Source of the DNA: a virus
Direction: 5' to 3' (one strand)
DNA length: 36,054 nt
IMG/VR virus record: IMGVR_UViG_3300025031_000230
Position 1 is the stretch's first letter. The number at the start of each line of letters is the position of its first letter. Under the pieces are notes generated by a model. It had not been told where the DNA came from, ran no database searches, and worked only from the letters and a program-made list of their open reading frames with translations. Shown piece by piece: positions 14,427-34,948 of the stretch. Both the position numbers and the translations under genes were made by a program.

Positions 14427-14454
14427 TAAATTAAAATAAAAGCCTATTTTAATG

Positions 14455-14640
14455 CAAGCCCATCTAAAAACTTGTTAAAAAAGTAATTAAAACCATACTA
14501 CGTCCTTGAAATTCAAGGACTTTTTCATTTCTGTACTAAAAACTTTTTTGTGGTAAAAATTGAATTTATATAACTTGTTGATTTATAACGATTTAATAGA
14601 AAACCCCACACAAAAATCAACAAGATTTCGGAGGGGCTTG
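14455..14640. mobile_element. 186-bp MITE with imperfect TIRs and 9-bp target-site duplication
   Basis: Ends CAAGCCCATCTAAAAACTTGTT / AACAAGATTTCGGAGGGGCTTG (18/22); ATTTTAATG at 14446-14454 and 14641-14649; internal GTCCTTGAA-A-TTCAAGGAC palindrome at 14502-14520. Confidence 0.85.
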
Positions 14641-14670
14641 ATTTTAATGCCAGGTCTTATATCTGTGTAA

Positions 14671-14868
14671 TCAATTAATTTCGTCAACAACCCCGGCAAT
14701 AGAATCTTCATCGATAATTTTAGATAAACGTTCATGAAGTTCATCATTAGATAGTTTAAATAAACTATTTTTAGAATCAACATGTGCCATTAAATCTACA
14801 TCACTAGTTCCTGTTTTAACTTGATGAAGAATTGATACAGCTTGTTTTTTTGTGAAAATTTGTTTCAT
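14671..14868 (-). CDS. Small hypothetical protein
   Basis: ATG start; no overlap with credible genes. Confidence 0.55.
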   Translation of the reverse strand: MKQIFTKKQAVSILHQVKTGTSDVDLMAHVDSKNSLFKLSNDELHERLSKIIDEDSIAGVVDEIN

Positions 14869-14993
14869 ATTATTTCAAATTGTTGATATATGTCTATTAT
14901 ATCAACAATTGAATCAAATTCTACCGTTTATCAAAAAAAATTTGTTTTTAATTTTTATTGTGAAAAAATGAAGAAAAAAATAAAAACAATAAA

Positions 14994-15575
14994 ATGGTTA
15001 GAAAAATAATTACAAGTATTATGTTACTTATTTGGTGCCAATTGGCATTAGCTTTAGATGAGAATTCTATTAATACTGTAAATGTTAATGATTTTTGGAA
15101 CAATTATATTTCATATGTTGATGAGCCAATTGATTCCATTACGGGTAAAAAAGTAGATGTTTGGCAAACACCAAAAGAAACGATAGGTCTTAAAACAGGT
15201 GATTGTGAAGATTATGCAATTATTAAATATTTTGATTTGATAAATTCAGGAGTGGATAGCAAAAAACTATATTTAGCTTGGGTAATAATAAATGAAGATT
15301 TAATTATTAAAAATAATTTTAAATCACATATAGTTTTAGTTTATGAAAATGATAATAAAAGTTGGGTTTTAGATAATTATAGTAAAGAAATTATAGAATT
15401 GAAAAATCGTACAGATTTCTTAAGAATTGTTGCTAAATTAACTAACCATGGTAATAAAATTTATTTTAAATGTGGTGATAAAATAATTAAAAAATGGGAA
15501 TTGTTATTAGCTAATTATAATAGTAACATGTTAGATGTTGAAAATTTAAAAAAGATGTACAGAATACAAAAATAA
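14994..15575 (+). CDS. Transglutaminase-like cysteine proteinase (BTLCP/LapG family), exported
   Basis: Signal peptide; DVWQTP.ET...TGDCEDYAIIKY, H.VL, VLDN giving a Cys-His-Asp triad. Confidence 0.88.
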   Translation: MVRKIITSIMLLIWCQLALALDENSINTVNVNDFWNNYISYVDEPIDSITGKKVDVWQTPKETIGLKTGDCEDYAIIKYFDLINSGVDSKKLYLAWVIINEDLIIKNNFKSHIVLVYENDNKSWVLDNYSKEIIELKNRTDFLRIVAKLTNHGNKIYFKCGDKIIKKWELLLANYNSNMLDVENLKKMYRIQK

Positions 15576-15616
15576 TGTTATAATTGCTTCATGTTAAATA
15601 AAATGAGGTGATAATT

Positions 15617-16636
15617 ATGAGATCTTTAGCTAGTATTCGTGTAGCAGGAGAAAATTTTCCTATTGTTGGTGCTGATTTAATTACCGCAACACGTGTTGAT
15701 GGTTGGGTTTGTGTAACCCAAAAGGGCGAATTTAATGTTGGTGATTTAGGTGTCTATTTTGAAATTGATTCTTTTCTTCCAGGAACAGATAAACGGTTTT
15801 CATTTCTTGAAAAGACATTTATAAATTGGTTGGGAAATGTGGGGGCAAGATTGCGCACAATAAAGTTACGTGGGCAAGTATCTCAAGGCTTGTTTTTACC
15901 AATGCGTTTATTTCCAGAATTAGATGGTAAGGTCGTCGGTGATGATGTAACTGAAATTTTAAATATTCAAAAATGGGAAGCCCCAGTACCTACACAGTTA
16001 GCTGGAGAGGTTACAGGGAAAATGAGATCAGTAATTCCAATTACAGATGAAGAACGAATCCAAAATCTTATTGATAAGATTAAAACACATATTGCTGGTC
16101 AAACTTTTGAAAAAACTATAAAGTTAGATGGAACATCAATGACTGTATTTTGTCATGAAGGACAACTAGGTGTTGCTGGTAGAAATTGGGAGCTTCGTGA
16201 AAGTGAAGCAAATACTCTATGGAGGGTTGCAAGGAAGAATAAACTAATTGAAGCTGTTGGATCTTTGGGTAAAAATATTGCTATTCGTGGTGAGTTGATT
16301 GGTGAAGGAATTCAAGAAAATAATGAAAAGCTAGTTGGAAATGATTTTTATTTATTCAATATTTGGGACATTGATAAACAAGAATATCTTTCTCCAGAAG
16401 ATAGAGAGATTGTTGTTGCTGAATTAGTAAATCTGGGAGCAAAAATCAATCAAGTTCCAACTGAAGGCTTTATTGTATTTGATGAAAATGTTACTGTAGA
16501 TGATATTTTATCTTTAGCCGATGGGAAATCTTTATTTTCACCAAACCGTGAAGGTATTGTGTTTAAAAGAAAAGATGGAAAATTTTCATTTAAAGCGATT
16601 TCTAATTGGTATCTACTTAAGCACGCCAACCGTTAA
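15617..16636 (+). CDS. ATP-dependent RNA ligase, DRB0094/Rnl2-like family
   Basis: KLDGTS (motif I), GELIG, FNIWD, EGIVFK, FKAIS; N-terminal LASI...GAD...YFEIDSFLP; GAGGTG RBS. Confidence 0.92.
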   Translation: MRSLASIRVAGENFPIVGADLITATRVDGWVCVTQKGEFNVGDLGVYFEIDSFLPGTDKRFSFLEKTFINWLGNVGARLRTIKLRGQVSQGLFLPMRLFPELDGKVVGDDVTEILNIQKWEAPVPTQLAGEVTGKMRSVIPITDEERIQNLIDKIKTHIAGQTFEKTIKLDGTSMTVFCHEGQLGVAGRNWELRESEANTLWRVARKNKLIEAVGSLGKNIAIRGELIGEGIQENNEKLVGNDFYLFNIWDIDKQEYLSPEDREIVVAELVNLGAKINQVPTEGFIVFDENVTVDDILSLADGKSLFSPNREGIVFKRKDGKFSFKAISNWYLLKHANR

Positions 16637-16661
16637 TTAGCTTTAAATTATAAAAAAGAAA

Positions 16662-16691
16662 AAACCCAATGTCATAACTGGCATTGGGTTT
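16662..16691. terminator. Bidirectional intrinsic terminator
   Basis: AAACCCAATGTCA-taac-TGGCATTGGGTTT between convergent genes. Confidence 0.8.
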
Positions 16692-16709
16692 AAAATAAAA
16701 AAGTATTGA

Positions 16710-16985
16710 TTACTTGTTTACAGCTTCTTTCAAAGCCTTACCAGCAGAAAATTTAGGAGCTTTCTTTGCAGGGATTTTAATGGTTTTACCAGTTAATGGG
16801 TTACGACCATCACGTGCTTCTCTTTGCGCAACTGAGAATGTTCCGAAACCAACAAGGGTAACTGACTCACCAGATGCTAAAGCACCTGAAACAGATGCTA
16901 ATACAGCTTCTACAGCCTCAGAAGCCTTGACCTTGGTTACGTCAGCGGCTTGAGCTACGGCTTCAACTAATTGAGTTTTGTTCAT
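16710..16985 (-). CDS. hup: Histone-like DNA-binding protein HU
   Basis: MNKTQLV...VTLVGFGTF...[15 protein letters not shown]...[13 protein letters not shown]; AGGAG RBS. Confidence 0.97.
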
Positions 16986-17170
16986 AATTTTTCTCCTAAA
17001 TTTAATTGTTAAAATCCATTCGGTATTAAATGGAAAGAGTTTGAATACTCTTACTTATATATTTATAAAATTTTTTTCTTTATGTCAAGTAAAGAATGCT
17101 TTAAAGACCATTTTTAGGGACTTTATGGATTTTTTTTGAATTATTTATTATTTATTGATAAATATTTTGT

Positions 17171-18796
17171 TTATTCATCATCATCTTCTTTTTCAAGCAT
17201 AAAAGACATATAGTTTCCAGTATCAAGTTCTCCGCATGAATAACCTTGATTATATCCATATTGTGGGATTATTAATGTGAAATTTGATTTTGTTTCATTG
17301 GACATAGCTAAGGCATATTGATGACAATCTTTAATACATGGAGCATCATCGGTTATGAAGATTAAGGCAAATGAATATTCATAACCATAACCTTCTAAGT
17401 AGCTTGTTTCTTCATCTTCTAAATTAATAATATTTTCATTAGGATTTAATGTTTTTTCGAATTCTTGTTTAACAAATTTAAAAAATTCTTTAATTCTTTT
17501 ATCAAATTCTTTAGACCCTAAATCAAAAATATCATCATCATAAACAATAGATTGGCTGTCTATTTTTTCTAAAGGAAGATGTATCTTTACTTTAGTTGTT
17601 GGAACAAAATTAATTAATTTTTGTATCGTTTTTTTAAGTTTTGATTCCCCACCAGATATTTTAGTTAAGCAATCAATATTGCTTTGAATAACAAATAAAT
17701 TGTCATTATGTTTTTGTGACAACGAAAAATATGGCTGAGGATTGCCACAATATGTAGTCGGTTGACCTATATATTTGTGAAAAAATGGTATAAAGTCTAG
17801 ATATTGATATGCTTTTTTCATTGCATATCCATTGTAAATCTTATCTTCTAATAATGTTTTTAAAATAACATCTTTACGAAGTGTTTTTGTTTCTAATATT
17901 TGAGGTAATTCATGGTCAAGAATAGATTCTTTGATAAATATTTTAAGGGAAAATGTGTCAGAATTTATTTTTGAAGGATGAACTGTTTCTTCGTCTAAGT
18001 TATCGCCTAAGTATAATGAATAGTTTTCTAAAATTGTGTCATATTCATCACTAGCTCTATATGTATTATATAGGAATGTCTTATTTTTAAATATTCTTAA
18101 CACACAATGTGAAGTTCTTGAATTAGATGCTGTATCATTAACTATTTGTTCTAATAGAGAATTATCCTCACTAATAATATCATCTTCTACCATTTTATTA
18201 ATTAAGTCCATACTGATAAATACAACAGATTGACCATAATCAGATAGTTTTTTAGGTACTGTTTGTGTCCAAATAATCCCTAAGTCATTATGATGAATAA
18301 TACTAAAAGCTATCTCTTTATTTTCTGTTTCATTATTTAAAATATAGTCAGACACCTCTTGTAAGTCATTTCTAATTTTAATATTATCATAATCAAGAGT
18401 TCCCATTGTATCATTGCTAATTCCAATAACACGATGATGATTTCTAATTGCTATAGCACCATTAGGTAAAAGTTTAGGAACCCATGTTTCACCAGCCCAA
18501 ACACTAATATCTAAATTAGCATCAAAAATTTTCCATAATAAATCAAATTGTTCACCATTTAATTTTTTTCGAGCATTTGAAATATGAATTAAAATACTTT
18601 CTATTTTATCTTCAAGATAATCACAAGGTAAAGATATTGTGGAGTTATATGTTCTAGTTGCTTTAGATTTTATAAGTGCTTTTGCTAAAATTATAGAATC
18701 TATTTTGGGGAAAAAATCTGGTAGATTTTCAAAATCATTATTAAAAAGTTGGTCGACAACTTCATTTATTTGTTTGTTCGTTATTTTTTCAATCAT
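17171..18796 (-). CDS. Large hypothetical protein
   Basis: 541-aa ORF with AGGAG RBS; no motif recognised. Confidence 0.8.
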   Translation of the reverse strand: MIEKITNKQINEVVDQLFNNDFENLPDFFPKIDSIILAKALIKSKATRTYNSTISLPCDYLEDKIESILIHISNARKKLNGEQFDLLWKIFDANLDISVWAGETWVPKLLPNGAIAIRNHHRVIGISNDTMGTLDYDNIKIRNDLQEVSDYILNNETENKEIAFSIIHHNDLGIIWTQTVPKKLSDYGQSVVFISMDLINKMVEDDIISEDNSLLEQIVNDTASNSRTSHCVLRIFKNKTFLYNTYRASDEYDTILENYSLYLGDNLDEETVHPSKINSDTFSLKIFIKESILDHELPQILETKTLRKDVILKTLLEDKIYNGYAMKKAYQYLDFIPFFHKYIGQPTTYCGNPQPYFSLSQKHNDNLFVIQSNIDCLTKISGGESKLKKTIQKLINFVPTTKVKIHLPLEKIDSQSIVYDDDIFDLGSKEFDKRIKEFFKFVKQEFEKTLNPNENIINLEDEETSYLEGYGYEYSFALIFITDDAPCIKDCHQYALAMSNETKSNFTLIIPQYGYNQGYSCGELDTGNYMSFMLEKEDDDE

Positions 18797-18807
18797 GATA
18801 GCTCCTG

Positions 18808-19365
18808 TTATATTTGTTGGTTTTTAAGTAAAAATTCAAATGGTGATTTGGTTTTTAATGAATCAAGAATGAGGTTTTCCCAATTTGATGAATTAAAAAA
18901 ATCTTTGTTGCAGTCTGTAATTATTTTATAAAATCCGACTAAATCGGTTCTAACACCTATACTTTTATTCTCTAAGTCTTGATAATCAATCCATGGTTTA
19001 GTTCCCATAAGTGTTTTTCTACCATTTACTATTTGAATAAGTGATGGTTCCCAATCGCTTACAAAAATATTTTGATTTAAATCAATAAATACATTTTTAC
19101 GATTAAGATCTCCATGGGTTATTCCTAAATAAAATGCTTTTGTAACAATTCTACAAAGTTCAATCTTTTGAGATTTGGTAATCTTCCCATAGTTGATATT
19201 GTTTGATTTTATTCGTGTAGTTTTACGAATAATATTGTCATCATTTAATTCAAAATAAGTGTAGCTTGTTTCATTTAATGTTAACTTCTTAATTAAATCT
19301 ATACGAGATAATATTTTATCTTTATTTTCAATTAAGTTAATATAAGAATATGTTTTAATAATCAT
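18808..19365 (-). CDS. Minimal protein-kinase-like protein
   Basis: HGDLNRKN catalytic loop, DWE at the DFG position, GTKPW, TDL. Confidence 0.75.
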   Translation of the reverse strand: MIIKTYSYINLIENKDKILSRIDLIKKLTLNETSYTYFELNDDNIIRKTTRIKSNNINYGKITKSQKIELCRIVTKAFYLGITHGDLNRKNVFIDLNQNIFVSDWEPSLIQIVNGRKTLMGTKPWIDYQDLENKSIGVRTDLVGFYKIITDCNKDFFNSSNWENLILDSLKTKSPFEFLLKNQQI

Positions 19366-19595
19366 TGAGAAAGAATAGTTTTATCATTTTCCATCTCTAT
19401 TTCAAATTCAATCGAAACTGAACCAACTGAAATTATAAGAGTAGTTCCAAAACATGGAGAAGTTTCAATTGTATAGGTAACTCCTGGGAATTCGACTTCT
19501 TCATCAAAATGTCCCTTAACAATTGGTTTAATCCAATCAGAATAAAGTTTGGTTTGTTCTTCAGTGAGAATGATATTTAAATTTAAAATTGCCAT
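19362..19595 (-). CDS. Small hypothetical protein
   Basis: ATGA overlap with the kinase-like gene. Confidence 0.65.
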   Translation of the reverse strand: MAILNLNIILTEEQTKLYSDWIKPIVKGHFDEEVEFPGVTYTIETSPCFGTTLIISVGSVSIEFEIEMENDKTILSQ

Positions 19596-19740
19596 AAGAT
19601 ACTTTTTCTTAAAATTATTTTCAGTTTAATCTAATTACTTGTTTGATGTCAACTTATTTTAACCTTTAAACAAGGATTTTTATTATTGACTAAACTGAAA
19701 ATAATTTTAAGAAAAAAGAAATGATTATGGGTTTAAAAAA

Positions 19741-20247
19741 ATGAAAATAAATAAATTTTTTAAATTTAAAGATAATAAATTATTATTAATATCAATCTTA
19801 TCTTTTGGAAGTGTTGCTGGAGCATTAGTGTCACAATATGTGTATGATATGCAACCTTGTTCTTGGTGTATTTTACAAAGAATAGTTTTTATAGTTATTG
19901 GAATTGTAAGTTTAATTTTTTATATAAATTCAAAAATGAAAATTATTGGTTTTGGATTGGTATCAATTTTTTCTAGTTTAGGAATAATGGTAGCTATGTA
20001 TCAATTTTTTGTAGCATCAAAAAATTTTGATTGTAATATTTCTATTGCAGAAAAAATTATTGTTGCTACAGGATTAAATAATATTCCAGAGTTGTTTGGA
20101 ATATACGCATTATGTGCAGATCTATCACCATTAATATTTGGTATCCCTTATGTGTTATGGTCTTGTATTATGTTTTTAGGAATAATGATAATATCAGATA
20201 TATGTGTATTTAATACTGTTAAATTAAATAGAGTTATTGAAAAATAA
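19741..20247 (+). CDS. dsbB: Disulfide bond formation protein DsbB
   Basis: PCSWCILQR motif, second Cys pair (DCN...ALCAD), four hydrophobic segments. Confidence 0.9.
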   Translation: MKINKFFKFKDNKLLLISILSFGSVAGALVSQYVYDMQPCSWCILQRIVFIVIGIVSLIFYINSKMKIIGFGLVSIFSSLGIMVAMYQFFVASKNFDCNISIAEKIIVATGLNNIPELFGIYALCADLSPLIFGIPYVLWSCIMFLGIMIISDICVFNTVKLNRVIEK

Positions 20248-20321
20248 TTTAAACTTGATAATATATATAGATATATATAAAAGATGTTGTTTTGTTAACA
20301 TCTATTTTAAAAGGATTAAAG

Positions 20322-20792
20322 ATGAGGCCGTTAAGAAATAAAAAAGAAGATTTTATAATTGGAGTTGTTGATAGACTTAAAGATGGTCGTTGGGGGGTAA
20401 ATGAAATAGATTACTTGAATGAAAACCACTCAAGATACCATTTAAATTATGAAGATATAGGAATGTTGTTAGTATATGCATATAAGTATGCATATACTAT
20501 GGCAATGGAAGATGGTGTAGTTACACAATTAGAACAAGATCAATTAAATCAAATAAACTTAATGTATAACTATTCTTATTTACCTAAAAGTAGATATGAA
20601 AGAGAGGCATTAAAAGTAAAAATTCTAGTTTTAACGAGACAATATGAAAAAACTAATACAGTTCAAGAAAGTATAATATTAGAAGACCACTATAAACAAG
20701 AAAATGAAATTAAAAATGAAGTAAAAAGTATTTATTATAAAAGTAGATACCCAAGACCTAAATTAACACCATATTCAAATTATGGATATTAA
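20322..20792 (+). CDS. Hypothetical protein
   Basis: AAGGA RBS before ATG 20322; ends RYPRPKLTPYSNYGY. Confidence 0.7.
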   Translation: MRPLRNKKEDFIIGVVDRLKDGRWGVNEIDYLNENHSRYHLNYEDIGMLLVYAYKYAYTMAMEDGVVTQLEQDQLNQINLMYNYSYLPKSRYEREALKVKILVLTRQYEKTNTVQESIILEDHYKQENEIKNEVKSIYYKSRYPRPKLTPYSNYGY

Positions 20793-20795
20793 AAA

Positions 20796-20819
20796 AGGTC
20801 ATAATAAATATTATGACCT
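20796..20819. terminator. Bidirectional terminator hairpin
   Basis: AGGTCATAATA / TATTATGACCT between convergent genes. Confidence 0.7.
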
Positions 20820-20842
20820 AATGAAAAAAATAGATAAACTAT

Positions 20843-21364
20843 TTAAATAGTTTTATTTCTTTTATCCATTTTAATTTTCCATTTTTCAGTTAAAGTATCA
20901 GCATTAATTTCGTCAGTTAATTCATTAACTGTATATTTCTGAAGGTTAACTTCATCTTCTGTAACATTAGCAATAACATAGCCTTTTTTATTGGTAATGT
21001 TACCAATTTTAGAATTAGATGGTGAAACCTTCTTTTGCATAATTTCAATTTTTCTAATATCTGAAGATTTACGAAGTAAGATTTTCATCTCACCAACAAT
21101 AATATTGGTAACTAAATTAGAAGCGAGAGAATCACCAACTTCAATAAATAAATTAGAGCGCATAGAGCTAATCACACGAGCTAAATTATGTGCTGTTAAG
21201 ATTCCGGCATCATTAGCTTTAGCAAGCTGTAATATTGTGTTGCGAAAACCAGACATTATTTTCCCAGTCCGTTTAGCAACTAATGGCTGATCTAAAGTGT
21301 TTAAGTAGTCAGCAAGATAGAGTGCTGCCGGTGTTTTTCCAAAAGTGTTTTTATCTAAATTCAT
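20843..21364 (-). CDS. Hypothetical protein
   Basis: ATG with AGGT RBS. Confidence 0.75.
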   Translation of the reverse strand: MNLDKNTFGKTPAALYLADYLNTLDQPLVAKRTGKIMSGFRNTILQLAKANDAGILTAHNLARVISSMRSNLFIEVGDSLASNLVTNIIVGEMKILLRKSSDIRKIEIMQKKVSPSNSKIGNITNKKGYVIANVTEDEVNLQKYTVNELTDEINADTLTEKWKIKMDKRNKTI

Positions 21365-21433
21365 ATTTTTACCTATTTGTGTTATTTAATTAATATATGT
21401 GATTATATATCTTTTTTATTAAAAAATGTAAAA

Positions 21434-22183
21434 TTAATTAATTTTTAAAGAAAAAGAGTTGTTATATGTTTTCATATGTTCTGCGACATAAGCATTAGCT
21501 TCAATCGTTTTTTCTCCATTAGATAGAATTGATTTTCTGAGATCCGTTAATTCTTCTGAAACATATGCAGAATCTTGTTCATACATTGATTTCCAAATTG
21601 AGATAAGATTTAAGACATCAGCATTATCATATGACTGAGATAATGTTTTAATAAAACCGTTAGTAATTTGTTTGTAAGTGCTATTAATGAGTTCTTTTCT
21701 AGACTGAAGATGCCTAAAATATTTTAAACTAATTTCTGTATTGTTTTTATTATAGTATGATGCAGTTTGTGTCGTAATGATATTGTTCTTATTGAAAAAA
21801 TCAATATAGTAAAGGTTTTCTTGTTGATATTTTGAAGCAACTTTTGCAACATTATCAATGTAGCTTAAAATATTCTTAATGTCTTTCTCACTAATTGATT
21901 TAATCTTTAGAATTTGTTCTTTTTTAATGTCTTCATTAATTTTTTGATTAATAATATTTTCAGCTTGTCGTTGTTCAATAAGAGTTTTTACTGAGTAACT
22001 CCCAATCAAAATAATAAGTCCAATCAAAAAATATCGTAAAACTACTTTGATATTAGTAGCATTGATTGATTTTGAAAGTTGATAAATACTAAGTGCTAAA
22101 AAACTTGGTGAATCAGTTGAAGATTCTTGTTTCTTTTAAAAAAAATCAAGTTCATCTACATTACCTTTTGTGGAATTATTCAT
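21434..22183 (-). pseudogene. Membrane-anchored hypothetical gene interrupted by one in-frame TAA at codon 16
   Basis: AAGGT RBS and ATG 22183 are in frame with the 21434-22027 ORF; the only stop is at 22136-22138. Confidence 0.65.
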
Positions 22184-22241
22184 TTTATAACCTTATTAAT
22201 GGAGTTTATCGGATAGGATAATTATAACATGAATTAACTGA

Positions 22242-22835: not shown

Positions 22836-22966
22836 AAATGTGTATATCTTTCAATTGTAACAAATTATTATTTTATTTTAAAAATAAAAAATTGTCAATT
22901 TAGTATAAAGGTGAAGAATTGATTTTTTTTGAATAAAAATTATCATTCCATAGAAAATGGAACGGG

Positions 22967-22995: not shown

Positions 22996-23030
22996 GGTGG
23001 TCTAATTATGAAACTATCAGGATTTAATAT

Positions 23031-26514: not shown

Positions 26515-26528
26515 TATTTTACTCCAAA
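26251..26528. repeat. 15-bp direct repeat flanking the 87-aa ORF
   Basis: TTATTTTACTCCAAA at 26251-26265 and 26514-26528. Confidence 0.8.
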
Positions 26529-26580
26529 AGTTTTGTATATTATGTTTTAAAAGAATTATAACAGGTTAATGTATTAAAAA

Positions 26581-27267
26581 TTAAGGTTTTGGTGAAGATT
26601 TTAAAATATTGCTATCAAAATTAAATACAATATCATTAACTAACGAATAAAGTTTAGCCGGGCGATAAGCTCCTTCTTTAATTTGTTCGCCAGTTTCAAA
26701 AAGCACACCAGTTTCATCAATTTTCTTTCTGAATGTACTTTTATCAAGAGGTTCACCAAGAATAATTTCATAAACTTGTTGTAGTTTTGGAAGTGTAAAT
26801 GGGTGTGGTAAAAAGTGCATTGGAAGTGTTGAGTAATTAACTTTGTCAGTTAATCTCTTAACTGCTAAGTCAATAATATGATTATGATCAAATGCAAGAG
26901 AAGTATTTTTAATTTCACTAATTGGCTTCCAAACAGCATTAGAGACAACACTTTGCTTATCAACTAAAGCAATATAAGCAATAGAGATAGTTGGACCACG
27001 AGGGTCATGACCACTTCTAGTAAATAATTGTTCAACATAATTAACTTTAGCACCAGTCTTTTCCGAAAGGACACGAGCAGTAGCATTTTCAAGACTAGTA
27101 TCTTCTTGGCTAACTAACCCACCAGGAAGAGAATATTTCCCATTAAAAACTCCGTGTGTTCGTTTAACAAGAAGAACATGGAGTTGATTGTCAATAATGG
27201 AAAAAATAACAGGATCGACACTAACTGGAAAAATGAATTTTTGAATTTCTGGTTTAAATTTAGGCAT
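26581..27267 (-). CDS. nrtR: NrtR-family Nudix/wHTH transcriptional regulator
   Basis: VSVD.VIF, degenerate Nudix box SLPGG...ARVLSEKTG, RDP-like HDPRG, C-terminal FTL..LQ.VYE.ILG..LDK..FRKK...RPAKLY; GGAG RBS before ATG 27267. Confidence 0.9.
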   Translation of the reverse strand: MPKFKPEIQKFIFPVSVDPVIFSIIDNQLHVLLVKRTHGVFNGKYSLPGGLVSQEDTSLENATARVLSEKTGAKVNYVEQLFTRSGHDPRGPTISIAYIALVDKQSVVSNAVWKPISEIKNTSLAFDHNHIIDLAVKRLTDKVNYSTLPMHFLPHPFTLPKLQQVYEIILGEPLDKSTFRKKIDETGVLFETGEQIKEGAYRPAKLYSLVNDIVFNFDSNILKSSPKP

Positions 27268-27279
27268 GAATAACTCCAA

Positions 27280-27801
27280 TCAAATATAAAGTAAATTGTC
27301 ACGAATATGTGCTGTAACTAGTGGACTACAACATTTTTCAACATTAATCCAATCTTTGTTTTTGCAAAAGTCTCTAATTTGTGTGCTGTGTTCTCCTGAA
27401 TCTTTGATAACAATAACACCAAATTCATTATCTATTTTATCATAAGAATAAAACTTTTCCCAAATTTCTTTTTTATAATTATCTTCACCAATAATCAATT
27501 TTGCATCAATTGATTTTTCTTGTTTAATATAAGTAAGCAAATCATAACTGTATGGAATTTGTTGTTTTTCCATATAAAATTTTTTATCTAGTTCAATAAT
27601 GTCAACCGATTTTAAATGCTGAAATAACATGGTAATCATTTTAAGGCGTTGCTCATATTCAATAAACTCCTTGTTAAAGGGATGAATAAAAACGGGAGTA
27701 ACAAAAACACGCTCACAAGATAATAGTGCATCTTCAACAGCCCTAAGGTGCCCAATATGTGGGGGGTTTCCTGTTAGACCGAATAAACCAATATTTCTCA
27801 T
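27280..27801 (-). CDS. nadD: Nicotinate-nucleotide adenylyltransferase
   Basis: GLFGLTGNPPHIGH (HxGH), IIGEDN, HSTQIR; AGGAG RBS before ATG 27801. Confidence 0.88.
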   Translation of the reverse strand: MRNIGLFGLTGNPPHIGHLRAVEDALLSCERVFVTPVFIHPFNKEFIEYEQRLKMITMLFQHLKSVDIIELDKKFYMEKQQIPYSYDLLTYIKQEKSIDAKLIIGEDNYKKEIWEKFYSYDKIDNEFGVIVIKDSGEHSTQIRDFCKNKDWINVEKCCSPLVTAHIRDNLLYI

Positions 27802-27822
27802 AAATCTCCTAATTATTATAAT

Positions 27823-27862
27823 ATTATAACACACTTAGTTTTAATAATCAACTAAGTGTGTT
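27823..27862 (-). promoter_or_regulatory. Sigma70 promoter of nadD-nrtR overlapped by a second copy of the operator
   Basis: TTGATT (27851-27846)-N17-TATAAT (27828-27823); arms AACACACTTAGTT / AACTAAGTGTGTT. Confidence 0.88.
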
Positions 27863-27880
27863 GCTTTTTAACAGATTTAT

Positions 27881-28423
27881 TTGTATTTTTTAAAAATAAT
27901 AAGGATATTAATTATGACTTTTTCTCAATTTACTATGACATATAAATTAATTTTAATTATGTTGAAATTATTTGTTTTATTAATTTTAGGTATTTGGATA
28001 AAAAATAGTTTCAATTATTTTGAAGGAGCAAATATTTTTAGTTACATAAATGATATTTCTAAAATAGAAAAAAACCTAGGCCAAATTTGGTTAATTGTAA
28101 ATCATTGGCTGATAGATACTGCTTGGTTAATGTTGAATGTAATTATAGTTCAAGTATTAAGTTGGGGATTTAAAAGAATTCCTGTAGCATCTAAATTCTT
28201 AGAGTATTGGGATAATTTAGGTGGCATATCATATATATTGGGAAGATATATTACGAATCATCTAAGAAGAAATAATTTAATAAATTTTATGGATATTGTT
28301 TATTTATCTGAAATTAGTAATGCAGAATTAAGCCTAATAACTAAACATAGTAAAAATGAAGTGTTATTTAAATTGTTTTCCAAATATGATAAAAATTTTA
28401 AACAAGATTTGGAAAACAAATAA
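27881..28423 (+). CDS. Hypothetical membrane protein
   Basis: Two hydrophobic stretches; real start probably a downstream ATG. Confidence 0.65.
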   Translation: MYFLKIIRILIMTFSQFTMTYKLILIMLKLFVLLILGIWIKNSFNYFEGANIFSYINDISKIEKNLGQIWLIVNHWLIDTAWLMLNVIIVQVLSWGFKRIPVASKFLEYWDNLGGISYILGRYITNHLRRNNLINFMDIVYLSEISNAELSLITKHSKNEVLFKLFSKYDKNFKQDLENK

Positions 28424-28466
28424 AAGAAGCTATTATTAGAATTCTTCAGTTAAATAATCATAAATT

Positions 28467-29159
28467 TTAATTTTTACCAAGCTTATTTTCTTTTCTAAAT
28501 TCAATAAACTGTTCTGGGGTAAGAGTGTTTTGTCCAACAGAGATAGAGGACACTGAAAGTAGACTTGAGTTCATTTTTTCAAAATCAATAAAAACATTTT
28601 CCATAGCCAATGCTTTTTTAAATCCAAAAGTAACAAAATCTCTAATAAAATTTAGAGTTTCAGATGCATCTGTATCTGAATCTTCACGAAACTTAAGACA
28701 AGCAAGAATGGCTGGAAACCAAATATCTGTAATTTCTTCTGTTTGTAAAATTTTTTTAGTTCCAATATATCCATAATCTTCAAGAAAGTAACCATTAAAC
28801 GTAATATCAAAAGTGCTCCCACCCCTAAAGGATTCTTTTGTTTTATCAATTGTATCGTGATCAAAATAGATTATTTCCTCATTAATTTGAAGCATTAATT
28901 CTTTAGCCGTTTGCTCAAAATACTTTTCTCTATCAATATGAAAAATAAAATTTAATGGCTTTGGGTTCATTTTTGATAATTTTTCTTTAATAATTTTATT
29001 ACTAACATCAAAAGTTAAGTTAGTAATAAAAATAGATGTTTCAGTATCATTATCCACCTCTGTATTATCTCCAATAGATTTAAGATGTTTAGGAAGCTGA
29101 ATAGAAACCAGGTGTTTAAGTTTATGTTGAATTTCTTCAGTAAGTGTTTGGATGTTCAT
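28467..29159 (-). CDS. Hypothetical protein
   Basis: AAGGA RBS; 230 aa. Confidence 0.75.
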   Translation of the reverse strand: MNIQTLTEEIQHKLKHLVSIQLPKHLKSIGDNTEVDNDTETSIFITNLTFDVSNKIIKEKLSKMNPKPLNFIFHIDREKYFEQTAKELMLQINEEIIYFDHDTIDKTKESFRGGSTFDITFNGYFLEDYGYIGTKKILQTEEITDIWFPAILACLKFREDSDTDASETLNFIRDFVTFGFKKALAMENVFIDFEKMNSSLLSVSSISVGQNTLTPEQFIEFRKENKLGKN

Positions 29160-29309
29160 TTAATTCCTTTTTTAAAAATGATTATTTAAATATATATTAT
29201 GTGGGAATGTTAATTAGGTCAAGTAATTAAAGTGGATAAATTCATTTTAATTGATGTTTTATATGATATAATTAATCCTCAGAGAGAAATTAACTTAAGG
29301 GAATGTAAA

Positions 29310-29948
29310 ATGCAAGAACTAATGGGTAATGACAATAGCTATCAAAGCCTTTTTATTGCAGTGCGTTATTGGTTGATTGGAATTTCTCAAAATGACCATC
29401 AGTATATTCCAGCTCTAAAAGCATTGGAATATGCTAAAAATATTCATATTGGTTTAAGAAAAGATGGTAAGACACCAGAATTTCAACATCAAATTGAAAT
29501 TGTTCATTATTTACGAACACTTTACACTGGCCTCATGTATCCTGGAGCTACATTTGCTGCGGCACTTCTTCATGATGTTCCAGAAGACTATGATATTTCT
29601 TTTGAAGAAATTGAAGAATTATTTGGGAAAAAAATTAGTGATGCTGTTAGATTGCTAACAAAAAAGCATCGTGGAGAAAAGAAAGAGATGGAGCTTTATT
29701 TCGAAGAAATGGCACATTGTCCAATTGCAAGTGTAATTAAGGGGGGTGATAGAATTAATAATCACCAAACAATGCATCCTGTTTTTACAAAAGAAAAACA
29801 AATTTCTTACATTACTGAAACAAAAGATTTCATTATCCCAATGTTAAAGAAGGCTAAGCATATTCATGTTGAACAAGAATATATTTATGAAAATATTAAG
29901 TTTATTCTTAAATCACAAATGGTGATGGCAAATCATCGATTAAGCTAA
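29310..29948 (+). CDS. RelA/SpoT-type HD hydrolase (Mesh1/small alarmone hydrolase-like)
   Basis: H...RKDG.TP...H, AALLHDVPED, IKGGDRINN; AAGGGA RBS before ATG 29310. Confidence 0.85.
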   Translation: MQELMGNDNSYQSLFIAVRYWLIGISQNDHQYIPALKALEYAKNIHIGLRKDGKTPEFQHQIEIVHYLRTLYTGLMYPGATFAAALLHDVPEDYDISFEEIEELFGKKISDAVRLLTKKHRGEKKEMELYFEEMAHCPIASVIKGGDRINNHQTMHPVFTKEKQISYITETKDFIIPMLKKAKHIHVEQEYIYENIKFILKSQMVMANHRLS

Positions 29949-30715
29949 TGATAGCTTAGAGATTCAAATAATTTGAGTGGCTTTTCATCTTGCATATATT
30001 GAATTAATCCAACTATTGTTTTCATATGAGGATTGTCTGTGTGCATATAAAGAAGAGCTTCTTTAGGAATTATTTTAATTAAAACCCTAACACCTTTATG
30101 ATGAATTCTTTTTTGACTTAACAAGTGAAATGGGAATCCAATTTTTTTAAAGAGAGCAAGCATTTTTGTTTCACACATAAACAACATGGAATCAAGATTC
30201 TCTGATAAAATCATCGTGGAAGCAAATAGACTTAATAATAAATAGTTGGTTGTTAATGGATTATGATCATTATTTGAAGACTTACTACGAAAATCATTTA
30301 AAATAAGAAGTCTAGATATTTCTGCATAATTGTTAGTTTCAATATTTGATTGAACAGCATTATATTCTTCGGGATGTTCTCTTCGGAAAGAATTTAAACA
30401 TGGAAGTTCAATCGTTTTGTCAATTTGTTGAATCAATCTAACACTAGCAATTGGTTCTTTAGATATTTTTGTAGAAATTAAACAGCCAGCCGAATTAGCA
30501 TCATAAAGGTCAGTTTCACAACGAGAATAATTAGAAGATTCAAATCCTAATTCTTCACAATATACCTGATGTCTTAATTGATAGCTCTTTTTAGCAATGT
30601 CCTCATTAAATTTTAATTGTGAATTAAAAAATTCTACAGTATAATGGTGTTTGAAATACTGTAACGTTAATTGAGGAATATTTGTCTTATTTAATTCTTT
30701 TAATTTTGTATCCAT
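29945..30715 (-). CDS. GNAT-fold acyltransferase of the FeeM / PEP-CTERM-associated / LuxI-like type
   Basis: YQLRHQVYCEELGFE...ETDLYD, ASVRL, LP, AEISRL. Confidence 0.8.
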   Translation of the reverse strand: MDTKLKELNKTNIPQLTLQYFKHHYTVEFFNSQLKFNEDIAKKSYQLRHQVYCEELGFESSNYSRCETDLYDANSAGCLISTKISKEPIASVRLIQQIDKTIELPCLNSFRREHPEEYNAVQSNIETNNYAEISRLLILNDFRSKSSNNDHNPLTTNYLLLSLFASTMILSENLDSMLFMCETKMLALFKKIGFPFHLLSQKRIHHKGVRVLIKIIPKEALLYMHTDNPHMKTIVGLIQYMQDEKPLKLFESLSYH

Positions 30716-30767
30716 TTTATTTTTATTATAATAATATTTTTAACTCCCAATATATAGTATAATGCTT

Positions 30768-30820
30768 GAAAAACTTTAATCAAGTGTCGAAAAACTTTAA
30801 TCAAGTGTCGAAAAACTTTA
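30768..30820. repeat. 21-bp tandem repeat, 2.5 copies
   Basis: GAAAAACTTTAATCAAGTGTC at 30768 and 30789, partial at 30810. Confidence 0.9.
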
Positions 30821-30873
30821 CATATATAAGTAAATCTTGATATTTCTTTATAGTGTTGAACAAAAATAATTAG

Positions 30874-31644
30874 GTGAAAAAAATGAAATTACATATTGTC
30901 TCTGATTTACATATAGAATATTCAAATTACCCACTTCCTGTTCAAGATGCTGATGTGTTAATATTGGCTGGTGATATTGGAAATGGATTAACTGGATTAA
31001 CGTATGCATCTCAATATAAAAAAGATTATAAGCATATAATTTATGTGCCTGGTAATCATGAGTTTTATGGTCATCATCTTTCTAGATTAAGTGTTGAATT
31101 AAAACAATATTCTAAAAGTTTAGGTATTATTATCCTAGATAACGATACTGTGCAAATAGAAGATGTTGTTTTTATTGGGTCTACTCTTTGGACAGATTTT
31201 AGACTTTATGGTGATAAGTTAGAACAAATTGGATTCTATATGAATAAAGCAATGAATGGAATTAATGATTTTTCACAAATAAGGTATGCTCATTGGTGGT
31301 TTCAACCAAGCAATTGTGCATCTTTAAGCATTGTTGCTCAAAGTTATATTAAGAATAAATTAATTGAAAATAAAAATTTAAAAAAGGTTGTAATATCTCA
31401 TCATTCACCAAGTTTAAAAAGTGTGCATGAAAAATATTTAGGAAACCAATTAAATCCAGCTTTTGCGAATGATTTAGATGAATTAATTAATCTGTCAGAT
31501 TTTTGGATTCATGGTCATACTCATGATTCTTTTGATTATTTAATTAATAAATCAAGAGTGATATGTAATCCACGTGGATATTCAAAATATGAATATAAGC
31601 AAGAAAATGAAAGTTTTAATCCTAAGTTTTGTTTAGAAGTTTAA
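30874..31644 (+). CDS. Calcineurin-like metallophosphoesterase
   Basis: SDLH, AGD, PGNHE, SHH, GHTH, NPRGY. Confidence 0.92.
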   Translation: MKKMKLHIVSDLHIEYSNYPLPVQDADVLILAGDIGNGLTGLTYASQYKKDYKHIIYVPGNHEFYGHHLSRLSVELKQYSKSLGIIILDNDTVQIEDVVFIGSTLWTDFRLYGDKLEQIGFYMNKAMNGINDFSQIRYAHWWFQPSNCASLSIVAQSYIKNKLIENKNLKKVVISHHSPSLKSVHEKYLGNQLNPAFANDLDELINLSDFWIHGHTHDSFDYLINKSRVICNPRGYSKYEYKQENESFNPKFCLEV

Positions 31645-31749
31645 AAAATAAACATTAACCTCATTATTTATTAATATAAATATATATAATAGATTGATTA
31701 TTAATTTAATTTCTTTAGTATAGAGTAAGACCAACTAATATGGAAAAAT

Positions 31750-32100
31750 ATGGAAACATCTTTATCAATTATAGAAAATTATGAAATAGTAAATAAAAAA
31801 GAAGCGGAATCTGTTGCAATAACTTATTCTTTAGCAGATTCTAACAAGCTTGTTGACCTAGAATCTGTTTATGTATTTGCTAAAGAAAAAAATAATTCAA
31901 TGTATGATTTAGTTATAACAAATGAGAATGGTAAAGAGTTGATTGTTTTTAAGGATTTAGATAATCAAAACTTACAGGAAATAAGAGATAAAAGAATTTT
32001 AATAGCTGGATTATCTGAAGATACAAACGAAATATCAGAAGTATGTGCAGTTTTACATGTAAGTATAGAAGGGAAAAGAAAAATAAGATTTGGTGGCTAA
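31750..32100 (+). CDS. Hypothetical protein
   Basis: ATG with GGA RBS; ends KRKIRFGG. Confidence 0.7.
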   Translation: METSLSIIENYEIVNKKEAESVAITYSLADSNKLVDLESVYVFAKEKNNSMYDLVITNENGKELIVFKDLDNQNLQEIRDKRILIAGLSEDTNEISEVCAVLHVSIEGKRKIRFGG

Positions 32101-33352
32101 ATTGACGAAAAATAACAAACTATTAGAGGAAGCCAAGAGCTTGGTTTATGGCAGTGAAAGTCATGAAATATCCTATGTTGGGGTTAAGCCTTGGTATTCA
32201 AGAGCCGTATCTAAATTTAAATTTGGAATGGCAACTGGAATGGCAACTGGTTTAATAGCAGGTTTGGCAGGCTTTGGGGCATTTAGTTCGGCAGATTTAG
32301 CTGAATTAAAAGATACTACTCTTTTAAGTAATCTTAGTGTTGGGAAACTAATAGATATTAATGCTGAAAAATTATTAGTAAGTTCTACAAATAATAAATC
32401 TGTTGTTGAAAATAATGGATTTGAGAGTGCATTAAATATTTTAAAAAAAGAACATGTAAATATTAATTTTACAGATATTGAAAATCAAAGAGATGTTTCA
32501 AAAGCTTTTTTAGGTAAAAATAATTTTATTGCTCTTGCTGCTGAAATGGAAGGTTTTCGTGGAGATTTACATAAGGATCCAGCAACTGGACTAAATATTG
32601 GTTTTGGTTACAATATATCGAAAAGAATTGGAAGTTCAACAATTGTTGTGGTGAATGACTTATCTGCTATTGGCTTATCTCATGAAAAAATTCAAAAAAT
32701 TCTTGATATTGCAAAATTACCTCAAAATAAATTAAATTTTGGAATAAAAGAGTTTAATAAAGGATTAGCTTCAGAAGATAAGCAATTAATTACGATTAAA
32801 CAGGGTGTTGCTTTACTAAAAAGAACACAAGCTGAATATAAAGAACAAGCTAGGTTATCGTTTGAAGGGGTGTTTGATAAAATGGGTAAACACCAACAAG
32901 AAGTTTTAACTTATGCTGCTTATAAAGCTGGTTATGATGCTTTATCTCAATATAAAAAAGCTATTCGTATAGCATCTAGTGTTTATGCTAAAAATAAAAA
33001 TCCAGGTATGGCAGAATTAAAAACAATAGCTAAAGAATTAACTTTCTACTATAGGAAAGATGGTAATGAAATGGTTCTAGATGAAAGAGCCAAATTGATT
33101 GCACAAACATTTGTTAATCAAGATTATTTAGGTGTTCAAATTGGTAAGAAAGATGGATTAACAAATTCATTGAAAAATATAAATAAACAGAAAATAGATT
33201 TTTTACATTTAAAAACAAATTTAACTTCTGAATCAAGTAATGCTACAAAGGTTGCAATTGAAATAAAGCAAAAACCTGATATTGGTGATTTTTTAAATAA
33301 ATTAAGAGATACAAATAAAGAGAGTTCAAAGCATAAAATCAAACAAGGTTAA
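32090..33352 (+). CDS. Membrane-anchored lysozyme-like (GH24-like) protein
   Basis: Gly-rich hydrophobic segment at about aa 45-67; EMEGFRGDLHKDPATGLNIGFGYN resembles E-x8-D-x5-T with Asn for Thr. Confidence 0.55.
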   Translation: MVAKLTKNNKLLEEAKSLVYGSESHEISYVGVKPWYSRAVSKFKFGMATGMATGLIAGLAGFGAFSSADLAELKDTTLLSNLSVGKLIDINAEKLLVSSTNNKSVVENNGFESALNILKKEHVNINFTDIENQRDVSKAFLGKNNFIALAAEMEGFRGDLHKDPATGLNIGFGYNISKRIGSSTIVVVNDLSAIGLSHEKIQKILDIAKLPQNKLNFGIKEFNKGLASEDKQLITIKQGVALLKRTQAEYKEQARLSFEGVFDKMGKHQQEVLTYAAYKAGYDALSQYKKAIRIASSVYAKNKNPGMAELKTIAKELTFYYRKDGNEMVLDERAKLIAQTFVNQDYLGVQIGKKDGLTNSLKNINKQKIDFLHLKTNLTSESSNATKVAIEIKQKPDIGDFLNKLRDTNKESSKHKIKQG

Positions 33353-34184
33353 GAAAATTAGTTGGAAAGTTTTCTTTTGACATATAGTCAGCAAATTTAT
33401 TTTTTTGTCTAGGAATCCAGGCAATTTGATAAAATTCAAATAGTTCTAAATTGTTAGAAATTTCTTCCAAAATGTTTTTAAATTCATTTTTTACATTTTG
33501 TGGATTAATTTTATACTTTTTAAGTAACATAATAGACGGATCTGAATCCGTGAATATCTCAAGAGATGATACATTCATATCTTTTGCAAGATAAATAGCC
33601 ATACTAATGGCTTTAAGTTCTGCAATATTATTATCATTGGTAGAGTCTTTTTTTCTAAAGCTAGCAACAACATTGTGGCCAGAGACACCATATCCAGCTA
33701 AATAAGTTTTAGAACTTACTGATGCATCAGTAAAAAAGGAAACATCAGGCTTAATAAATTTATCTGATTTCAAAATGTTTGCACCAATTTTCATATATTG
33801 TGTAATGATATAAGGTGGGTTTAACTTGATAGAAAGAGATTGGTCATGTTCAATTTTTTGAATAGGACTCAATAGAGAAACAAGTTTTTTAATTGTTTGT
33901 TTTTCGTTATAAAATTTTTCAATCATAAATTGAATAAATTTTTCAATATTCAATGTCGCATATTTAAACTTGTTTTCAAAACTTTTACCATAACAAATGT
34001 CTAATATTTTTGTTATTTGCTTAGGGAAACAAGAAAATTTTAAAATAAGAAAATTAGAATTTAAAGCATATTTAATTGCTTCACAAATAGAATCATCAAT
34101 ATGATTGGATGTTATTTGGAAAATAACATTATTATTTTGAATAATGACAACTTCATTGTTGCCATTATATTTTAAATTAATCAA
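33339..34184 (-). CDS. Protein with C-terminal RNase HI-like domain
   Basis: FFTDAS, NNIAELKAI, IFTDS, WIPRQKNKFAD (D-E-D-D). Confidence 0.85.
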   Translation of the reverse strand: MINLKYNGNNEVVIIQNNNVIFQITSNHIDDSICEAIKYALNSNFLILKFSCFPKQITKILDICYGKSFENKFKYATLNIEKFIQFMIEKFYNEKQTIKKLVSLLSPIQKIEHDQSLSIKLNPPYIITQYMKIGANILKSDKFIKPDVSFFTDASVSSKTYLAGYGVSGHNVVASFRKKDSTNDNNIAELKAISMAIYLAKDMNVSSLEIFTDSDPSIMLLKKYKINPQNVKNEFKNILEEISNNLELFEFYQIAWIPRQKNKFADYMSKENFPTNFLNLV

Positions 34185-34825
34185 GAATTAATCTCAAACA
34201 AATTATTTTGAGAAAATTTTGATTTAAGAAAGTAACCATTAGCCTTTAGTGCAGTCATGTCATTTTCATACATACCATAAGAAATTTCTTGAACTTGTTT
34301 TTCCAAAATTTCTAACTGTTCAATTAACATTGTCTTAGCTGTCTTTCCATTAGAGGCTTTAACATCATTTGCATAAGAGGATGGAAATCGCTCATATTGA
34401 TTAATTATTTTTGGAAGATAGGCATCAAAGATTGAAGTTAGATTACGCATGTCTTCATTAAAGCTATAATTTTGATTGTCTTTTTGTAGAAATGTTAGAA
34501 GTTCAATTGCATTTTTAGAAATACTAGAAAAAATAGATTTAGCCTCATTAGGAAGTTTATTAGATTCATTAACTGTCTTTTGCATTTTAGAAACAAATCC
34601 AATGTAATCATTAAGGTTTTCACCTTTAATGTGAAAAAAATTAATTTCTTTTTCTGCTGGAATTGCAATATAACCAAAAATATAACTCATAATTGCAATC
34701 GGAAGCCATAATGTTTTAATGACTCCAACAAAAGCAAGAACAAGAACAAGAACAATTGATGCAAGATCACAACCAATAATATTCTTGTTAGAAAGGAGGA
34801 ATTTTTTTATTTTTAAGATACTCAT
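34181..34825 (-). CDS. Membrane-anchored XpaC-like (5-bromo-4-chloroindolyl phosphate hydrolysis family) protein
   Basis: Two N-terminal TMs; YLP..I..Y..FP..YA...GKTA...L.EQL..L...I....YEND...L.AN..FL..KF. Confidence 0.6.
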   Translation of the reverse strand: MSILKIKKFLLSNKNIIGCDLASIVLVLVLAFVGVIKTLWLPIAIMSYIFGYIAIPAEKEINFFHIKGENLNDYIGFVSKMQKTVNESNKLPNEAKSIFSSISKNAIELLTFLQKDNQNYSFNEDMRNLTSIFDAYLPKIINQYERFPSSYANDVKASNGKTAKTMLIEQLEILEKQVQEISYGMYENDMTALKANGYFLKSKFSQNNLFEINS

Positions 34826-34948
34826 TTGGTTTGTTTAAGTAAGTTTAACATGGTGTTATTATAGCATGGAAAGCATTTATTTTTTGATTTTAAATATAAA
34901 AAAAGAATGAATAAATTAAATATTTAATAGAAAAAGCCCCAATTTTGA

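Follow-up and report, generated by a model that had tools for sequence, protein, structure and literature searches.

The AAAAGCC motif beside the element ends of this viral DNA is an A-run followed by the base of the stem of a terminator-like hairpin. We consider it probable, at roughly 0.7, that it marks the target of a transposon family whose insertions lie at a constant distance from the A-run and stem of such hairpins, placed there by a DDE transposase. The family is an undescribed group of DDE transposons, some of whose members carry a TnpB-like gene. The window, by which we mean the whole 36,054-nucleotide stretch analysed (IMG/VR record IMGVR_UViG_3300025031_000230), holds several of its members, and their features are collected in Table 1.

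The motif keeps its register in independent insertions

At positions 14438-14444 the window reads AAAAGCC, followed by T, the 9-bp sequence ATTTTAATG (14446-14454) and an element end that starts with CAAGCCC at 14455; at 34932-34938 it again reads AAAAGCC, followed by C, CAATTTTGA (34940-34948) and CAAGCCC at 34949. The motif thus stands 10 nt (1 nt plus the 9-bp duplication) before both left ends. AAAAGCC occurs five times in the window, about the number expected by chance, with two of the five in register before the only two left ends, and a 22-nt sequence from the element end occurs four times against 0.02 expected. The chance that two random 30-nt flanks from the window share any 7-mer in register is 0.005, falling to 0.00025 for a 7-mer with at least three G or C. 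A metagenome scan for the terminal repeat, which measures 28-30 bp and is inverted at the two ends, gave 87 distinct element ends. Nine elements show the 9-bp duplication at both ends within one locus, and a further 15 pairs were matched across loci.

For the TnpB-like element we compared 21 left ends, which represent independent insertions because their 9-bp duplications all differ. Setting aside the window and one doubtful end, the 19 further metagenome insertions share the left-flank consensus A5-R-C-C at -18 to -11, with A at each of -18 to -14 in 16-18 of 19, a purine at -13 in 18, and C at -12 and -11 in 14 and 15, respectively; AAAAGCC is exact in four of these flanks and AAARCC is present in nine. 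Across all 21 flanks, AAARCC occupies -16 to -11 in 10, compared to 0.00085 per background position (binomial P ~7e-26), and the A-run ends at -13 or -14 in 14 and between -17 and -13 in 19. A chance likeness of two AT-rich flanks might be suspected from the window, which offers two instances only and no excess of AAAAGCC, but recurrence in register in 19 further independent flanks refutes this reading, whose probability we regard as negligible. The earlier note on this DNA had placed AAAAGCC at the same offset before both left ends and concluded that insertion is site-selective; its coordinates are exact, the register recurs in the 19 further insertions, and site selectivity is strongly supported by the 21 independent flanks. 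The pyrimidine that it had expected at -10 did not hold, A being the commonest base there (12 of 19, with C in four, T in three and G in none).

Table 1. Positions of family-related features in the window
Feature	Coordinates	Strand	Remark
Target motif left of MITE: A-run + GCC, one spacer base	14438..14445	+	register matches the consensus of the 21 left flanks
MITE 9-bp target duplication, left copy	14446..14454	.	exact repeat of right copy 14642-14650
187-bp MITE with the family's terminal inverted repeats	14455..14641	+	
MITE 9-bp duplication, right copy	14642..14650	.	
Target motif left of full copy: A-run + GCC, one spacer base	34932..34939	+	
9-bp duplication of full copy, left copy	34940..34948	.	
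TnpB-like element, left terminal inverted repeat	34949..34976	+	
TnpB/Cas12f-like gene, first 347 codons	35013..36053	+	full length ~606 aa in relatives
Internally deleted copy, 3' part, including the gene's C-terminal codons	1..387	+	
Deleted copy, conserved structured non-coding tract	284-359	+	
Deleted copy, right terminal repeat	360-387	+	
Deleted copy, 9-bp duplication, presumed right copy	388..396	.	
Stranded fragment, C-terminal part of TnpB-like gene, without element end	8782..9080	-	
Unoccupied A-run/stem-loop/T-run hairpin between convergent genes	3336..3372	.	site type used by the family

Most empty sites are terminator-type hairpins

Twelve empty sites were reconstructed for the TnpB-like element. 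Eight fold as A-run/stem-loop/T-run hairpins, in six of which the apex lies no more than 0.5 nt from the centre of the duplication, and four carry the left-side motif only, without a hairpin. Seven of the 12 fold far better than shuffled sequences (z -4.5 to -7.4). The earlier note had raised, as an alternative to its own TAM-like reading, that the loops of AAAAGCC...GGCTTTT-type terminators are the target, and with eight of 12 empty sites forming hairpins this proves the best fit and a better reading than a TAM-like motif. Where AAAAGCC-type flanks recur next to ends of this family, annotators should treat them as split terminators and not as TAM evidence. At the L184/L127 site the motif register is kept with the hairpin apex 6 nt off, and targeting of the apex is therefore not separated from targeting at a fixed distance from the A-run.

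All observed sites lie between genes, those beside the MITE being convergent, as would follow if elements inserted anywhere and the survivors were those in intergenic terminators. Selection of this kind, however, cannot set the distance from A-run to element end to 1-2 nt or bring the middle of the duplication to within 0.5 nt of that of the loop, nor does it account for L184, in which one element sits inside the terminal repeat of another copy and uses its AAGCC in the same register. Since the register holds at the level of the nucleotide, survival of intergenic insertions alone is insufficient, and we judge this explanation improbable.

Several single loci add detail to the sites. In a related metagenome contig (L144), a right end is flanked by the same 9 bases as 34940-34948, with GGC and a T-run next; the presumed right duplication of the deleted copy in the window has no such GGC and T-run after it. 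Two ENA contigs (L228 and L229) share the window's own left flank and both stop inside the element, and no matches were found in a phage collection and two viral-contig scans. The MITE contains a hairpin and T-run of its own at 14502-14530. A 15-nt pattern scan of genome contigs returned one real relative among chance matches, L019 from an Asaia MAG; a reading of L019 as a motif-less insertion is rejected, since its site also forms a stem-loop with a T-run behind it and has a weak A-run.

Relatives without the TnpB-like gene use the same sites

The same ends and the same site type occur in MITEs of 47-190 bp, in a 0.8-kb element with a small HNH gene (110-aa product) and in 6-9 kb elements encoding a ~590-aa DDE transposase, and the motif is thus not tied to the nuclease. 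Of 40 ends from these other cargo types, 33 have A at -17 and 27 have an A-run that ends between -16 and -12. In DDE-carrying elements of GC-rich hosts, seven of nine distinct flanks show an A-run plus GCC, a flank also seen beside a copy on Polaromonas JS666 plasmid 2 and beside L210, a TnpB-like relative that is 32% identical and resides in a host of 50% GC. Hosts of the family span 25% to 60% GC. Among relatives at 33-41% identity (L208 and L209), no recognisable ends were found. The TnpB-less elements with the same ends are also without the RNA-like tract found at the right end of the TnpB-like element. Because TnpB-less relatives choose the same sites, the choice is that of the transposition machinery and appears to belong to the transposase.

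These relatives also bear on whether the TnpB-like protein could itself direct or catalyse insertion, through a CAST-like guide or as a RuvC-fold transposase. Cas12k ranks among its top structural matches and the 2-kb element has a single gene, as such a role would have it, but elements lacking the gene share these ends and sites, a DDE transposase gene between identical ends accompanies TnpB-like copies in one contig, and the sites differ in sequence, so that one guide cannot specify them all. We therefore hold a TnpB-directed insertion to be highly improbable.

A zinc-finger-less TnpB relative and its structured right end

The TnpB-like protein is real, with a Cas12f/TnpB fold and an intact D-E-D triad but no zinc finger. 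Its AlphaFold model (pLDDT 86.6) has Cas12f, Cas12k and ISFba1 TnpB as top Foldseek matches (probability 1.0, E down to 1e-7), and the shared fold spans the whole protein in a WED/REC/RuvC architecture like that of solved members. Within the RuvC triad, the first D and the E are invariant in 23 relatives and the third D is kept in 20 of the 23. The C4 zinc finger between RuvC-II and RuvC-III is absent, with a Y-S-S-V-G-G stretch instead; some recognised TnpB clades also miss this finger (Altae-Tran et al., PMC10691335). In sequence searches, tblastn gave direct matches to annotated TnpB at 22-25% identity and the NCBIfam guided_TnpB model NF040570 scored a sub-threshold 28 bits against a cut-off of 100, while no Pfam match (OrfB/TNB) was obtained for the window protein or P0001, and a profile search of PDB sequences returned weak Cas12f/TnpB matches only, swamped by coiled-coil matches. 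The ~105 nt from the stop codon to the element end are conserved, and their stems persist where loops change and where paired bases are substituted together; half of this right-end tract repeats the terminal repeat in degenerate, inverted form, an arrangement also seen in 47-50-bp mini-elements.

A nuclease of this fold, with its conserved triad, matches to TnpB and adjoining structured tract, might use the motif as its TAM. An RNA from the right end would then carry the duplicated 9 bp and right flank as guide, and the nuclease would cut unoccupied sites with A-R-C-C-N directly 5' of the guide-matched sequence. The geometry proposed in the earlier note is self-consistent, G is absent at -10, and AAARCC is more frequent in left-end than in right-end flanks (10/21 versus 2/26, Fisher p = 0.003), an asymmetry that is also a counterpoint to a symmetric, transposase-only model. 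Nevertheless, the site preference is present without the nuclease and so does not count as evidence of a TAM, the putative guide-bearing tract is for half its length a degenerate inverted terminal repeat, and a resealed donor site of the IS605 type, on which such a nuclease could act, does not arise in DDE transposition. The TAM proposal has a workable geometry and some backing from the left-end bias, but a TAM is unneeded to explain a motif whose sites TnpB-less relatives share, and we regard the proposal as rather unlikely. We hold equally unlikely a combined account in which the half-site A-R-C-C-N is read twice, by the DDE transposase for placement and by the TnpB-like nuclease as a TAM, the latter cutting the same terminators when unoccupied by way of the right-end RNA; if true, a non-autonomous DDE element would gain an IS605-style homing or retention drive.

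Elements encoding a DDE transposase share the ends of the TnpB-like element

The ~590-aa protein has a fold like those of the ISCth4 and Tn5 transposases, with weak N-terminal matches to the IS1 zinc finger and helix-turn-helix over ~70 residues. The IS1 equivalog model scores 30-33 bits in the N-terminal region only, short of its cut-off of 100, and the protein passes no curated family threshold. It has ~1000 homologues, carries no Pfam or NCBIfam name and is annotated as 'hypothetical' on plasmids of Pseudomonas, Polaromonas, Enterococcus and Staphylococcus. The gene is located within elements of 6.2 and 8.7 kb that end in the family's repeats, and one 221-kb contig holds both this gene and TnpB-like copies that share an identical 30-nt end. 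No DDE gene lies within the window; the 2-kb element has the TnpB-like gene only, the DDE gene being found in larger relatives with the same ends, and an hhalign comparison of the DDE protein with the TnpB-like alignment detected no relation. Most likely the ~590-aa transposase moves all element types, and we infer that it is the cutting enzyme.

In the mechanism that we propose, with insertion placed by the DDE transposase, AAAAGCC would be the left half of the preferred insertion site, comprising the A-run and the first G/C pairs of a short stem, and the full site would typically be of the kind formed by a bidirectional intrinsic terminator, a hairpin with A-run, stem-loop and T-run. The elements, bounded by terminal inverted repeats of 28-30 bp, would be DDE transposons that move by cut-and-paste or copy-paste. 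Their transposase, most likely the ~590-aa protein with IS1-like N-terminal zinc fingers plus helix-turn-helix and a Tn5/ISCth4-like catalytic core, would make cuts staggered by 9 bp, with the end of the A-run 13-14 nt outside the element end, and the hairpin loop would therefore usually fall within the duplicated 9 bp. Without a transposase of their own, the ~2-kb TnpB-like element, the 570-bp derivatives formed from it by deletion and the window MITE would be moved in trans. The site may be read through its sequence, an A-tract bend or an extruded hairpin.

Placement in terminator-type hairpins is near-nucleotide-precise in hosts from 25% to 60% GC, and the family is well suited to asking how a target made of an A-tract and hairpin is recognised by a DDE enzyme. 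Because some non-autonomous members carry nucleases, either the zinc-finger-less TnpB relative or the 110-aa HNH protein, the family also lends itself to testing whether the TAM of an RNA-guided nuclease becomes adapted to the site of a DDE partner.

Comparison with known systems

TnpB branches associated with DDE transposases, named DDE-1 to DDE-6, have been described (Altae-Tran et al., PNAS 2023; PMC10691335). Like the DDE branches in the available portion of that paper, the elements here have a TnpB-type gene no more than 250 bp from one end and inverted terminal repeats, and they include solo TnpB copies with ends near-identical to those of transposase-carrying relatives. The sole DDE partner with a named family in that portion is IS630, in contrast to the ~590-aa enzyme and 9-bp duplications seen here, and a terminator-type site preference does not appear in it. 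Insertion into short G/C-stemmed intergenic palindromes is shared with the REP-targeting insertion sequences (IS1397, ISKpn1, IS621 and others), and in IS1397 and ISKpn1 the transposase itself sets target specificity (PMC1525189). Unlike these, the present family is not confined to a single repeated REP family; its targets are generic A-run/stem-loop/T-run hairpins that vary in sequence and occur in many hosts, and its transposase is of another family.

The family shares with IS200/IS605 elements a short conserved motif 5' of the left end and the pairing of a nuclease gene with a structured right-end tract. In IS200/IS605, the TAM of TnpB is the transposon's target motif, which abuts the left end, and the elements have no inverted repeats and make no duplication, whereas here the motif lies 10 nt from the left end, the elements are of DDE type and the motif is common to nuclease-less relatives. 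Group IIC introns likewise insert at intrinsic-terminator stem-loops, and do so in one defined orientation; unlike the elements described here, which have inverted repeats and a 9-bp duplication, these retroelements recognise the hairpin as single-stranded DNA and have neither feature. With IS1 the family shares the 9-bp duplications and an N-terminal zinc finger plus helix-turn-helix that match the IS1 profile, but its transposase is ~590 aa rather than ~230 aa long and has a Tn5/ISCth4-like core, and the element ends are unrelated.

Site-selective insertion of the TnpB-like element

Both occurrences of AAAAGCC that the earlier note had described were confirmed: at 14438-14444 one base and nine base pairs separate the motif from the element end (CAAGCCC at 14455), and the identical arrangement recurs at 34932-34955. 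Judged from the window by itself this coincidence is suggestive, as two random window flanks would share a 7-mer in register with a probability of 0.005 (0.00025 if the 7-mer has three G/C). A scan of public metagenome contigs with the 23-nt terminal repeat yielded 86 loci with 87 distinct ends. Of these ends, 21 bound the TnpB-like element on its left; because the 9-bp duplication differs in each, these represent independent insertion events. Positional base counts from 19 of the flanks (excluding the window and one doubtful end) gave A in 16-18 flanks at positions -18 to -14 outside the element, A or G in 18 at -13, C in 14 at -12 and in 15 at -11, and A, C, T or G in 12, 4, 3 and 0 at -10. 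Exact AAAAGCC occurs in four of these flanks, and AAARCC lies in register in 10/21 left flanks against a background of 0.00085 per position. Absence of the motif from other insertions, which the earlier note had named as fatal to its claim, is therefore not what the metagenome left flanks show, and site-selective insertion is established.

Coordinates of elements and genes (L-numbers denote related loci or contigs outside the window)
Feature	Location	Strand	Remarks
9-bp target duplication of MITE	14446-14454 and 14642-14650		Exact repeat, one copy past each MITE end
MITE			187 bp, between its two 9-bp duplication copies
Internally deleted copy, right end	Ends at 387 in window		
Stranded fragment of TnpB-like gene	8782-9080	Minus	
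HNH-gene element, ~0.8 kb	L019:5402-6175; also L124, L132, L136, L140:5869-6243		Family ends; sole gene, 110-aa HNH_5
DDE transposase gene	L140:1576-3327	Minus	
DDE transposase gene	L184:8017-9801	Plus	
DDE transposase gene	L224:2456-4228		

Most targets are terminator-type hairpins

Pairing left and right flanks through the 9-bp duplication allowed us to rebuild empty sites, 12 for the TnpB-like element and three for other family members. Seven of the 12 are folded much better than shuffled sequences (z -4.5 to -7.4), and one more is folded more weakly; in all eight an A-run and a T-run flank a 5-8-bp stem with a 3-5-nt loop, as in a bidirectional intrinsic terminator, and in six the hairpin apex lies at most 0.5 nt from the duplication centre. 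The window's own left duplication matches the right flank at L144, where it continues into GGC and a T-run to give a terminator-type hairpin, and an unoccupied hairpin of the same type lies between convergent genes at window 3336-3372. Given this architecture, AAAAGCC is the A-run plus the stem base of the hairpin. With 8/12 rebuilt sites being such hairpins, terminator-loop targeting, which the earlier note had offered as an alternative, is the better reading of the motif. Four of the 12 sites show the left half only, and the L184/L127 site keeps the motif register with the apex 6 nt off; the enzyme may therefore take its register either from the junction of A-run and stem or from the hairpin apex.

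What is new here is the targeting of generic terminator hairpins in such a way that the 9-bp duplication is centred on the loop. Group IIC introns target terminators via different chemistry. REP sequences are intergenic palindromes targeted by DDE insertion sequences, with specificity coming from the transposase (PMC1525189).

Three further observations concern insertions. At L184:2601-2631 an element has inserted 16 nt into the terminal repeat of another copy and uses that repeat's own AAGCC in the register of the flank motif; at its tip, the terminal repeat resembles the target motif. Several 570-bp to 1.1-kb copies at L144, L158 and L188 carry left and right 9-bp duplications that do not match each other; their matches lie in flanks on other contigs, a pattern indicative of recombination among copies. 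The MITE has its own hairpin and T-run (window 14502-14530, plus strand), which could serve as a stand-in terminator for the upstream plus-strand gene whose signal the insertion split.

A DDE transposase family shares the ends

The family terminal repeats also bound mini-elements of 47 and 102 bp, another of ~50 bp consisting of little more than two terminal-repeat copies placed back to back, the HNH-gene element (in an Asaia MAG and elsewhere), and cargo-bearing elements of 6.2 and 8.7 kb. The large elements code for a protein of 583-594 aa that has about 1000 homologues and belongs to no family named in Pfam or NCBIfam; its model (pLDDT 80.9) best matches the ISCth4 and Tn5 transposases, and its N-terminus gives a sub-threshold match to the IS1 zinc-finger/helix-turn-helix region. 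On one 221-kb contig, the 30-nt end of a DDE-gene element is identical to that of nearby TnpB-like copies.

Elements that lack the TnpB-like gene have flanks of this type too. Among 40 ends of other cargo types, A occupies -17 in 33 and an A-run ends at -16 to -12 in 27; in GC-rich hosts, 7/9 distinct insertion sites of a DDE-plus-restriction-system element have the family-type flank, and so does the Polaromonas JS666 plasmid 2 copy. At L210, a TnpB-like relative (32% identity, host with 50% GC) also splits a terminator hairpin at the apex, and the A-run lies on the side of the element's left end. Most parsimoniously, the DDE enzyme would mobilise the whole family in trans and set the site preference, the TnpB-like gene being a passenger on the mobilised element. 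A 2023 report (PMC10691335) described TnpB genes within inverted-repeat DDE elements as well as solo TnpB copies whose ends are the same as those of transposase-bearing relatives; new here are the unnamed transposase family and the nuclease passengers on its elements.

Plasmids of Pseudomonas aeruginosa, Polaromonas JS666 and Trichlorobacter carry members of the DDE family under the label "hypothetical protein", and about 100 plasmids of Enterococcus and Staphylococcus hold more distant copies (25% identity). In L211-L220, an 866-aa N6_Mtase/Eco57I-type restriction-modification gene always adjoins a DDE-carrying relative, whose other flank varies; this transposon apparently carries the restriction system as cargo. 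The HNH_5 protein, like the TnpB relative a nuclease aboard a non-autonomous element, is 81-95% identical between the Asaia MAG (58% GC) and unrelated metagenome contigs.

The TnpB-like protein and the TAM reading

Pfam and NCBIfam searches with the open frame from 35013 returned no hit. Exhaustive searching with HMMER recovered 98 relatives (full length ~606 aa), in whose alignment G-x-D-x-N and E-N-L-D-F are invariant and a V-D-x-A-A motif is also present. The AlphaFold model (pLDDT 86.6) matched Cas12f, Cas12k and ISFba1 TnpB over its whole length, the NCBIfam profile guided_TnpB scored 28 bits, below threshold, and tblastn recovered annotated TnpB genes at 22-25% identity. On these grounds, the element's gene is a divergent TnpB relative with its catalytic triad intact; the usual TnpB zinc finger is absent.

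The earlier note had preferred to read the AAAAGCC half-site as the TAM of this putative nuclease, which we consider unlikely. The geometry is sound, the nuclease looks active, and a tract of ~105 nt ahead of the right end is conserved, with stems kept despite loop changes and a paired substitution following the terminal-repeat variant; half of this tract, however, is a degenerate inverted terminal-repeat copy, as in the mini-elements. AAARCC is commoner beside the left end (10/21 versus 2/26 right flanks, p = 0.003), as is an A-run ending at -17 to -11 (19/21 versus 15/26, p = 0.02), and no rebuilt empty site carries the motif only on the right. A symmetric transposase model does not explain this left-end strictness, which could reflect an asymmetric transpososome, selection on how the element is oriented with respect to the terminator it splits, or an added TAM constraint. 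The note's observation stands and extends to other copies; its interpretation is supported in part, the TAM preference being outweighed by its own terminator alternative.

Other genes of the window

The window contains duplicated gene segments (2744-3244 versus 5793-6098, and 4646-5095 versus 5271-5729; 89-97% and 74-82% identity for the two sets), paralogous neighbours within 3 kb. Most of its large genes had no match in Pfam and PHROG searches; the few matches, a PHA02142-type RNA ligase, RNase H, NAPRTase and phrog_10079, are compatible with a phage-like or other mobile replicon.
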